A DNA stretch of 64,000 bases, from the NCBI RefSeq assembly GCF_044324785.1, contig NZ_CP172127.1; one strand, given 5' to 3'. The notes below the pieces were generated by a model. The model made no database searches. It was not told the DNA's origin and saw only the letters and a list, made by a program, of their open reading frames with translations. How positions within the stretch are numbered: position 1 is the first letter of the stretch; every line of letters begins with the position of its first letter. Both the position numbers and the translations under genes were made by a program. Shown one piece after another: positions 38,471-39,926 of this stretch. This DNA comes from Escherichia coli. GTDB taxonomy: Bacteria; Pseudomonadota; Gammaproteobacteria; Enterobacterales; Enterobacteriaceae.

Positions 38471-39046
38471 ATGGAATACTTTGATATGCGTAAAATGTCG
38501 GTAAATCTGTGGCGAAACGCTGCCGGTGAAACGCGAGAAATTTGCACTTTCCCACCGGCAAAACGTGATTTTTACTGGCGTGCCAGCATTGCATCCATCG
38601 CGGCGAATGGGGAGTTTTCTTTGTTTCCCGGTATGGAAAGGATAGTGACGTTGCTGGAAGGCGGCGAGATGTTCCTTGAAAGCGCAGACCACTTTAACCA
38701 TACCTTAAAACCGTTACAGCCTTTTGCCTTTGCGGCGGACCAGGTGGTAAAAGCGAAACTGACGGCAGGGCAGATGTCGATGGATTTCAATATTATGACG
38801 CGCCTGGATGTCTGTAAGGCGAAAGTCAGAATTGCCGAACGTACGTTTACTACCTTTGGCTCACGCGGCGGGGTGGTGTTTGTAATAAACGGGGTGTGGC
38901 AATTGGGCGACAAACTGCTCACTACCGACCAGGGCGCGTGCTGGTTCGATGGCAGGCACACCCTGCGGCTTTTACAACCGCAGGGTAAACTGTTGTTCAG
39001 TGAAATCAACTGGCTCGCTGGTCATTCGCCGGATCAAGTTCAGTAA
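38471..39046 (+). CDS. ves: HutD-family stress protein Ves (191 aa)
   Basis: Track ORF 38408..39046; start at [24 protein letters not shown]. Confidence 0.85.
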
Positions 39047-39893
39047 TTTCATAGTTACCGGAAAGCAGCGGCTTACAAAGAATTTTATAACCGTCGTGAT
39101 CAAACCCGGCGGGTGTCCGAATTAACGTTGTCGCTTCTTCCAGCGAATTAACCGCCCCCAGCCACAGCCAGTTTTGAATAATATGATATTGAGTCATTTC
39201 CGGGTGCTGTTCTTTCAGCGCCACCGCACCTTGCCAGGGCCAACACACCACCCGCAAACGCTCAAGAGACTGGCGCAAGCGTAGCGCATGTTCCTCATGG
39301 CTCTCTTTACCGCAGCATGCTCCGGCGCAACGTTTTAATGCAGAACGAAAACAAGCACGACCGCGACTTAACGGTTCCAGTCCCAGCAGGCCATAACAAA
39401 GTTTTTGTTCATCAGCGATGGTCTGCAATGCTTGCAAAGCTGCGCGCCTATTGGCAAACAGGCCAAACAGGTTGGGGGCTCGTGAAAAATCCACCTCTTT
39501 GGCATACACCACATCGACGCGCTTTTCATTTAATTGCAGGGCACAGAGCTGGCGATTGCGGCGCAAGCGTTTATTAAACAGTGGCTGTTGTTCTTTGATT
39601 AATCGCGCTTCAAGGAGCAGAGCGCCGATTTCACCGGCGGTACATATCCAGCTGATGCGTCGGGATTGCCGTAGCATGGCGGCTTCATCCGGGGTACGTA
39701 AATGAGAAAGGACGCGGCTGCGGATGTTAATGCTTTTGCCGATATAGAGCGGCATGGTGTCACTTTCGCCATGAAACAGATACACCCCTGGTCGGGTGGG
39801 TAAGTCATTAAGGAATGAACGTAAATGTTCGGGATATTCATAAATTGCCGCAGCTTCAAATTCGATCCGCGGAGAAGTTAAACGCCGTACCAC
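39006..39893 (-). CDS. cho: Excinuclease Cho (UvrC N-terminal homologue, 295 aa)
   Basis: Track ORF; GIY-YIG nuclease motif ([29 protein letters not shown]); 3' end overlaps ves by 41 bp. Confidence 0.92.
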
Positions 39894-39906
39894 TGTTGAC
39901 TCCGAA

Positions 39907-39926
39907 TGCTGGTTATCTATCCAGTG
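39907..39926 (-). promoter_or_regulatory. LexA (SOS) box of cho: CACTGGATAGATAACCAGCA on the coding strand
   Basis: Reverse complement of 39907-39926; non-canonical CTGG-N8-CCAG box matching the cho/ydjQ SOS box as I recall it; 14 bp upstream of the cho ATG. Confidence 0.8.

Follow-up and report, generated by a model that had tools for sequence, protein, structure and literature searches.

Genes at the ves–cho–nadE locus

We analysed a stretch of Escherichia coli DNA of 64,000 nucleotides, referred to here as the window, and examined the region between spy (37783..38268, + strand; mapped from the RefSeq annotation of E. coli strain N3) and osmE (41152..41490, + strand; RefSeq). Within this region lies ves (38471..39046, + strand), which encodes a protein of 191 aa of the HutD family and for which RefSeq and the list of open reading frames agree. 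It converges with cho, also named ydjQ (39006..39893, - strand; RefSeq and the same list), which starts at a GTG codon and encodes a UvrC-like GIY-YIG nuclease of 295 aa. Upstream of cho is nadE (40123..40950, - strand; RefSeq). The segment 38300..40200 is 100% identical to strain N3 and has matches in 5425/5426 complete E. coli genomes.

Among the 5425 complete E. coli genomes, strain N3 alone reaches at least 99% identity over 38300..40200, the rest lying at 90–99%; as just one genome is this close, the source strain appears to represent a sparsely sampled lineage at this locus. In the annotation of strain N3, astE is a frameshifted pseudogene (locus L001, 1..654; about 36800..37453 of the window).

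The gene identities given in the initial annotation agree with RefSeq, NCBIfam, Pfam and the alignment to structure 1YCZ. Cho scores 578.8 bits against the NCBIfam equivalog NF007833 (cut-off 367), and its residues 23–111 align with the structure of the UvrC N-terminal GIY-YIG domain (1YCZ, E 2e-8), with GVY…YIGK kept. An equivalog match above cut-off together with a GIY-YIG catalytic domain indicates that the protein is excinuclease Cho. The Pfam GIY-YIG model scores 15.4 bits, under its cut-off, and Pfam at default threshold returned no family for Cho, the identity coming from the NCBIfam and PDB searches; NCBIfam UvrC models score far under their cut-offs. Ves matches the equivalog NF008488 with 426 bits (cut-off 292) over residues 1-191 of 191 and Pfam HutD PF05962 with 149.6 bits, which makes it a Ves protein with a HutD domain. 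The identities of ves and cho are secure.

A single LexA box lies upstream of cho

A LexA (SOS) box, CACTGGATAGATAACCAGCA, is located at 39907..39926 on the - strand, 13 nt upstream of the GTG of cho. It is identical, letter for letter, to the cho/ydjQ site published in a UV tiling-array study (PMC3009722), whose Table 4 gives 18 LexA motifs from upstream of UV-induced genes, cho included; a review likewise lists cho among genes with a 'known SOS box' (PMC6590174). There is one box only upstream of cho, as the initial annotation had stated. Its CTG-N10-CAG inverted repeat is intact (CTGGATAGATAACCAG, 39909..39924), and the box overlaps a conserved TGnTAnACT element.

Scoring of 39907..39926 with a LexA weight matrix had been proposed as a check on the box. 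From the 17 other sites of PMC3009722 Table 4, leaving cho out, we derived a heterology index of the Berg–von Hippel type. The cho box has an index of 7.93 and ranks 12 of 18, between uvrD (7.82) and ruvA (8.52). The 17 other published sites span 0.58–12.82, with dinB, polB and dinG at 11.8–12.8, well above cho. By this measure the cho box scores within the range of validated operators, and we predict an operator of intermediate strength. When both strands of the window were scanned with the matrix built without cho, the cho box was the top-scoring site in the whole 64 kb; its score was reached 0.07 times on average in random sequence of 64 kb (first-order Markov). The second-ranked sites were the tandem ydjM boxes at 52999..53036, which lie outside the training set and hence serve as a positive control. 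The plain CTG-N10-CAG pattern gave 29 matches in the window versus 12.6 expected, so it is not diagnostic alone and the full matrix is needed.

The tandem ydjM boxes are TACTGTACGTATCGACAGTT and CACTGTATAAAAATCCTATA, on the - strand; Table 2 of PMC4576408 gives the second one in identical form for b1728 ydjM.

We examined the conservation of this arrangement by scanning for the Cho protein in one genome per species. The scan gave 80 Enterobacteriaceae loci, 78 of them with enough upstream sequence. Every one of the 78 has a CTG-N10-CAG box at a distance of 11–16 nt upstream of the cho start codon, and the CTG and CAG are invariant throughout these orthologous loci. The aligned start codon is GTG in 75/78 loci, and the Shine-Dalgarno sequence GGAG, 6 nt upstream of the GTG (39900..39903, - strand), is conserved in the 78-locus profile.

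The CTGG/CCAG form of the box and the timing of cho induction

The initial annotation had called the box non-canonical, since it reads CTGG/CCAG, and had concluded that LexA binds it weakly and that cho is induced late. The form is indeed rare on both halves at once: among the 18 published UV-induced operators, CTGG-type half-sites account for 10 of the 36, and CTGG…CCAG on both halves is found in two, cho and ruvA. The ruvAB operator, CGCTGGATATCTATCCAGCA, belongs to a gene and promoter context other than that of cho and shows the same form on both half-sites, its index being slightly higher than that of cho. Thus CTGG…CCAG appears uncommon among published operators yet inside their functional range. 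Among cho orthologues it is G that forms the majority state at position 4 (48 of the 78 boxes, T in the other 30); at position 13, 51 boxes have A and 26 have C. The comparison suggests that the CTGG/CCAG form is common among cho orthologues and is not a defect of E. coli.

On a symmetrised matrix, the orthologous boxes have indices of 4.2 to 10.9, and the E. coli box 8.0. With C at box base 1, where many orthologues have T, the index of the E. coli box is about 8.0 instead of about 6.5, and this would add to a reading of the site as weak. The E. coli value is mid-range nonetheless, without being extreme. With an intact CTG-N10-CAG, the same form at ruvA and such an index, the term non-canonical was an overstatement.

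The conclusion of late induction ran the wrong way. A higher heterology index means lower LexA affinity (PMC6590174), and lower LexA affinity leads to earlier derepression (PMC9578287); the step from weaker binding to late induction is therefore reversed. A published time course agrees with early onset. After ciprofloxacin, the log2 fold change of cho goes from 0.21 (1 min) to 0.92 (10 min), 0.93 (25 min), 1.14 (50 min) and 1.59 (75 min) (PMC11002266). The cho transcript has thus risen by 10 min, the earliest point with a response, along with the other SOS genes, dinG and dinB among them. The response of cho to ciprofloxacin is of low amplitude, not of late onset. Low amplitude might be taken as a mark of an unusual operator, and so might the rarity of the double CTGG form. 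Against this stand the mid-range index, the early derepression that weak binding predicts, the rise at 10 min and the CTGG of most orthologues. In our view it is unlikely that the operator, with G at position 4 and C at position 13, is non-canonical and unusually weak and that cho is therefore a late SOS gene.

SOS control of cho itself, also claimed initially, is well documented by reports on UV, ciprofloxacin and, in Salmonella, nalidixic acid. By qRT-PCR after UV, cho rises 2.4-fold in exponential cells and 36.6-fold in stationary cells, and Salmonella ydjQ, with one box (HI 6.69), is 3.3-fold up with nalidixic acid (PMC8072944).

We also considered a Dcm methylation site in the box, following a 2026 preprint in which cho induction was higher in a dcm mutant. 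There is no CCWGG in the box, and we therefore discarded this explanation.

Convergent overlap of ves and cho

The 3' ends of ves and cho overlap by 41 bp of coding sequence on both strands (39006..39046), according to RefSeq and the list of open reading frames. The length given by the initial annotation is exact, and it is the same in K-12. Downstream of cho, ves was present within 2.5 kb in 59 loci, and it overlaps cho in 51 of them, by 41 bp (n=16), 23 bp (n=16), 7 bp (n=6) or 32 bp (n=5), the remaining overlaps being of 4 bp (n=5), 15 bp (n=3), 45 bp (n=2) and 10 bp (n=1). A gap of 3–48 bp separates ves and cho in 5/59 loci, and ves is about 1.8 kb away in 3/59. The 41 bp set consists of 15 fetched loci plus the window, and comprises Escherichia, Citrobacter and one contig of a Citrobacter-labelled MAG that is 98% E. 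coli-like. The cho box is also kept where ves is not beside cho, as in Salmonella, Klebsiella, Raoultella and others.

Inspection of the proteins shows where the overlap arises. The conserved cores end in …WLPGH (Ves) and …YEIIEL (Cho), and the E. coli proteins carry C-terminal extensions, SPDQVQ on Ves and DPANDQRAS on Cho, that are absent or different in other genera. The Cho tail differs even inside Escherichia, where DPENGLQAS and DPVNSLPAS occur. Among the 16 related loci with a 41 bp overlap, columns that combine cho codon position 2 with ves position 3 are variable in 8/12 cases with 16 extra states, versus 4/12 with 4 extra states for cho position 3 with ves position 2. Substitutions in the overlap thus follow the ves frame, and the Cho tail behaves as an unconstrained run-on sequence. 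This pattern, drawn from 16 related sequences only, is indicative of a Ves tail under more constraint than the Cho tail.

We propose that the overlap would have arisen as a side effect of outward drift of the stop codons in two convergent genes that abut each other. Its variation among genera argues that it is most likely incidental and neutral.

A functional overlap has to be weighed against this reading. There is neither space nor an intrinsic terminator between ves and cho, so SOS-induced cho transcripts must run antisense into ves. The two genes overlap or lie at most 48 bp apart in 55/59 loci. Moreover, a strong hairpin without a U-tract lies inside ves at 38960..38986 (cho strand), 20 nt beyond the stop codon of cho; cho transcripts may end there, and the hairpin may act as a 3'-end stabiliser for cho mRNA. 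Antisense transcription of cho into ves, and of ves into cho, could then act through polymerase collision or overlapping 3' ends. Transcriptional interference or 3'-end pairing could lower Ves in an SOS-coupled manner or let ves damp cho; if true, DNA-damage signalling would be coupled to Ves expression. We regard a functional overlap, and either of these outcomes, as quite improbable. The length of the overlap is not conserved; Salmonella, Klebsiella and Raoultella lack ves beside cho and yet have an unchanged cho operator; and the + strand fold across the overlap shows no terminator-like structure and is no stabler than shuffled sequences (z -0.75), which gives no sign of a bidirectional terminator. 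Furthermore, the tiling-array study threw out its own antisense signals as artefacts.

The hairpin contains a perfect inverted repeat of 9 nt, ACCCTGCGG/CCGCAGGGT, which pairs over about 12 bp when the RNA is folded; in Citrobacter the second arm of the hairpin is not conserved.

A BIME and a terminator remnant lie between nadE and cho

In the window, 229 nt separate nadE from cho; other Escherichia have 195–234 nt, most other genera about 82–184 nt, and in several loci the distance exceeds 300 nt, up to about 1 kb. The initial annotation had placed a REP/BIME element between the cho promoter and nadE, and we locate it at 39980..40077. Nearest to nadE is a Y-type REP, GCCGGATGCGGCGTGAACGCCTTATTCGACCTAC (40044..40077, - strand), which departs from the Y consensus by 2 mismatches; no such match is expected by chance. 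Next comes a long (L-type) BIME linker (40009..40043, - strand) that contains the motif TGCAAATTCAATACATTGCAG at 40016..40036, again with none expected by chance. Inverse to the Y REP is a degenerate REP of Z type, ATAGGCCTGACAGGCGTAGCACGTCAGAC (about 39980..40008, - strand), within the multi-copy stretch. This REP appears Z2-like, agreeing with the consensus at 23/29 positions, and its assignment to a Z type is tentative. The 126 bp BIME stretch is present in at least 40 places per E. coli genome; BLAST with the linker alone, a query too short to size the BIME-1 family, gave 1–5 places per genome. The whole spacer folds far better than shuffled sequences (z -4.64), with a stable hairpin at the Y REP. 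A BIME is defined as two inverse REPs plus a linker (PMC3333891), and the succession of REP, linker and REP in a high-copy extragenic palindromic unit at 39980..40077 fits this definition on the grounds of sequence.

The Rfam family RF02751 (ES036) matches at 40001..40043 (- strand) with 42.9 bits versus a gathering score of 37.6, and is the sole Rfam match above gathering score in the 64 kb window. This match to an 'sRNA', ES036 (CssrF), spans the BIME linker and the start of the Z REP, and suggests that what the family represents is the linker of a repeat element and not a dedicated sRNA gene. There is also a weak match to naRNA4 on the Y REP (40047..40083).

Between the BIME and the LexA box lies CCGCCTCTTTTTT (39946..39958, - strand), a conserved block in the 78-locus profile. 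Comparison with Kosakonia and Phytobacter identifies it as the 3' half-stem and T-tract of an ancestral intrinsic terminator of nadE. Both genera (L022, L027) have a short spacer with an intact nadE terminator, GGCGGC-GNRA-GCCGCC-T6, in the same place; in Escherichia the BIME displaces the 5' half of the terminator, and the 3' half and T-tract remain. The string CCGCCTCTTTTTT was reported as 'Motif 2' upstream of UV-induced genes, cho included (PMC3009722), and 'Motif 2' probably represents terminator tails of upstream genes.

The BIME is an insertion specific to Escherichia, located where the nadE transcript ends. In tandem gene pairs, REPs are described as partial terminators and stabilisers of the upstream mRNA (bioRxiv 10.64898/2026.03.23.713779). 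By analogy, its most likely role would be to stabilise the nadE message and to keep read-through into cho low.

A conserved promoter-like element overlaps the LexA box

Directly 5' of the 20-mer box, the 78 loci share the sequence TGnTA, in which T is found in 75/78, G in 78/78, T in 78/78 and A in 78/78, while the six bases upstream of it vary freely. Together with the first bases of the box it reads TGnTA(C/T)ACT, the form of an extended -10 element. Within the longer TGnTAnACT, the first T is kept in 75/78 loci and G, T, A, A, C and T each in 78/78. In the window the element is TGtTACACT (39923..39931, - strand) and overlaps the 5' end of the LexA box. It has the features of an extended -10 element for sigma-70, namely TGn plus a hexamer with A at -11 and T at -7. 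We infer from this conservation that TGnTAnACT is the extended -10 promoter element of cho. A generic sigma-70 consensus scan of 38200..40300, which needs at least 4/6 matches in both hexamers, returned no promoter, because the -35 is poor (TTTTTT); the terminator remnant CCGCCTCTTTTTT falls on the -35 region of this putative promoter.

Promoters of this type start transcription about 7 nt downstream, and for cho the start is predicted near 39915 (about 1823491–1823493 in K-12), some 23 nt before the GTG. We propose that cho would be expressed from its own promoter and repressed by one LexA dimer on the single operator at 39907..39926. This operator begins inside the putative -10 element and covers the expected start site. 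As LexA on 39926 to 39907 covers both, bound LexA would block RNA polymerase. DNA damage would then free the cho promoter through the RecA-stimulated self-cleavage of LexA. The -10 element, the start site and repression by occlusion are all deduced from the arrangement of these conserved bases.

It is highly unlikely that cho is transcribed mainly by read-through from nadE as a nadE–cho operon, with LexA as a roadblock rather than a promoter-occluding repressor: nadE and cho do lie on the same strand, the canonical hairpin of the E. coli nadE terminator is broken with the T-tract alone left, and REPs are partial terminators only, but in 78 loci an invariant -10-like element falls exactly on the box, genera with an intact nadE terminator have this box at the same spacing, and cho behaves as an SOS gene under DNA damage.

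Comparison with known systems

The essentials of this locus, that is, the cho locus, its LexA box and its SOS induction, are already known, from literature that goes back to 2000–2002. New here are the placement of the box 11–16 nt from the start codon in 78 loci, its overlap with TGnTAnACT, and the variation of the ves–cho overlap. The value of the present check lies mainly in annotation quality and is small beyond that. It puts right a common misreading, in that a weaker LexA box leads to earlier and not later induction, and it adds the comparative detail that Enterobacteriaceae share the operator, and the extended -10-like element that overlaps it, as fixed features. Both the ves–cho overlap and the BIME are specific to particular lineages and are probably incidental.

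We have little doubt that the window carries the E. coli cho (ydjQ) locus as known from textbooks. At the cho (ydjQ, b1741) locus of K-12, the gene order, the 41 bp overlap with ves and the 229 bp nadE–cho spacer are as in the window. In K-12 MG1655, cho occupies 1823515..1824402 and ves 1824362..1824937, and they overlap by 41 bp at 1824362..1824402. The box, the leader and the overlap are identical in sequence. Cho differs from its K-12 counterpart at 2 residues and Ves at 4; at the nucleotide level, 2 substitutions fall in the promoter region, neither of them within the box, and 1 falls in the BIME, differences at the level of strains only.

UvrC, the main 3'/5' endonuclease of NER, aligns with Cho through its N-terminal GIY-YIG domain. 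In contrast, the C-terminal half of UvrC is absent from Cho, which is 295 aa long.

The BIME upstream of cho can be compared with BIME-1 or RIB-type elements, in which a Y REP, a long linker with an IHF site and a Z REP lie at the 3' ends of transcription units. Like these, it combines a Y REP with an inverted Z-type REP, has the conserved long linker, is present in single copy and lies just after a stop codon. Unlike BIME-1, its second REP is degenerate and looks more Z2- than Z1-like, and it would therefore be classed as an 'atypical' BIME.
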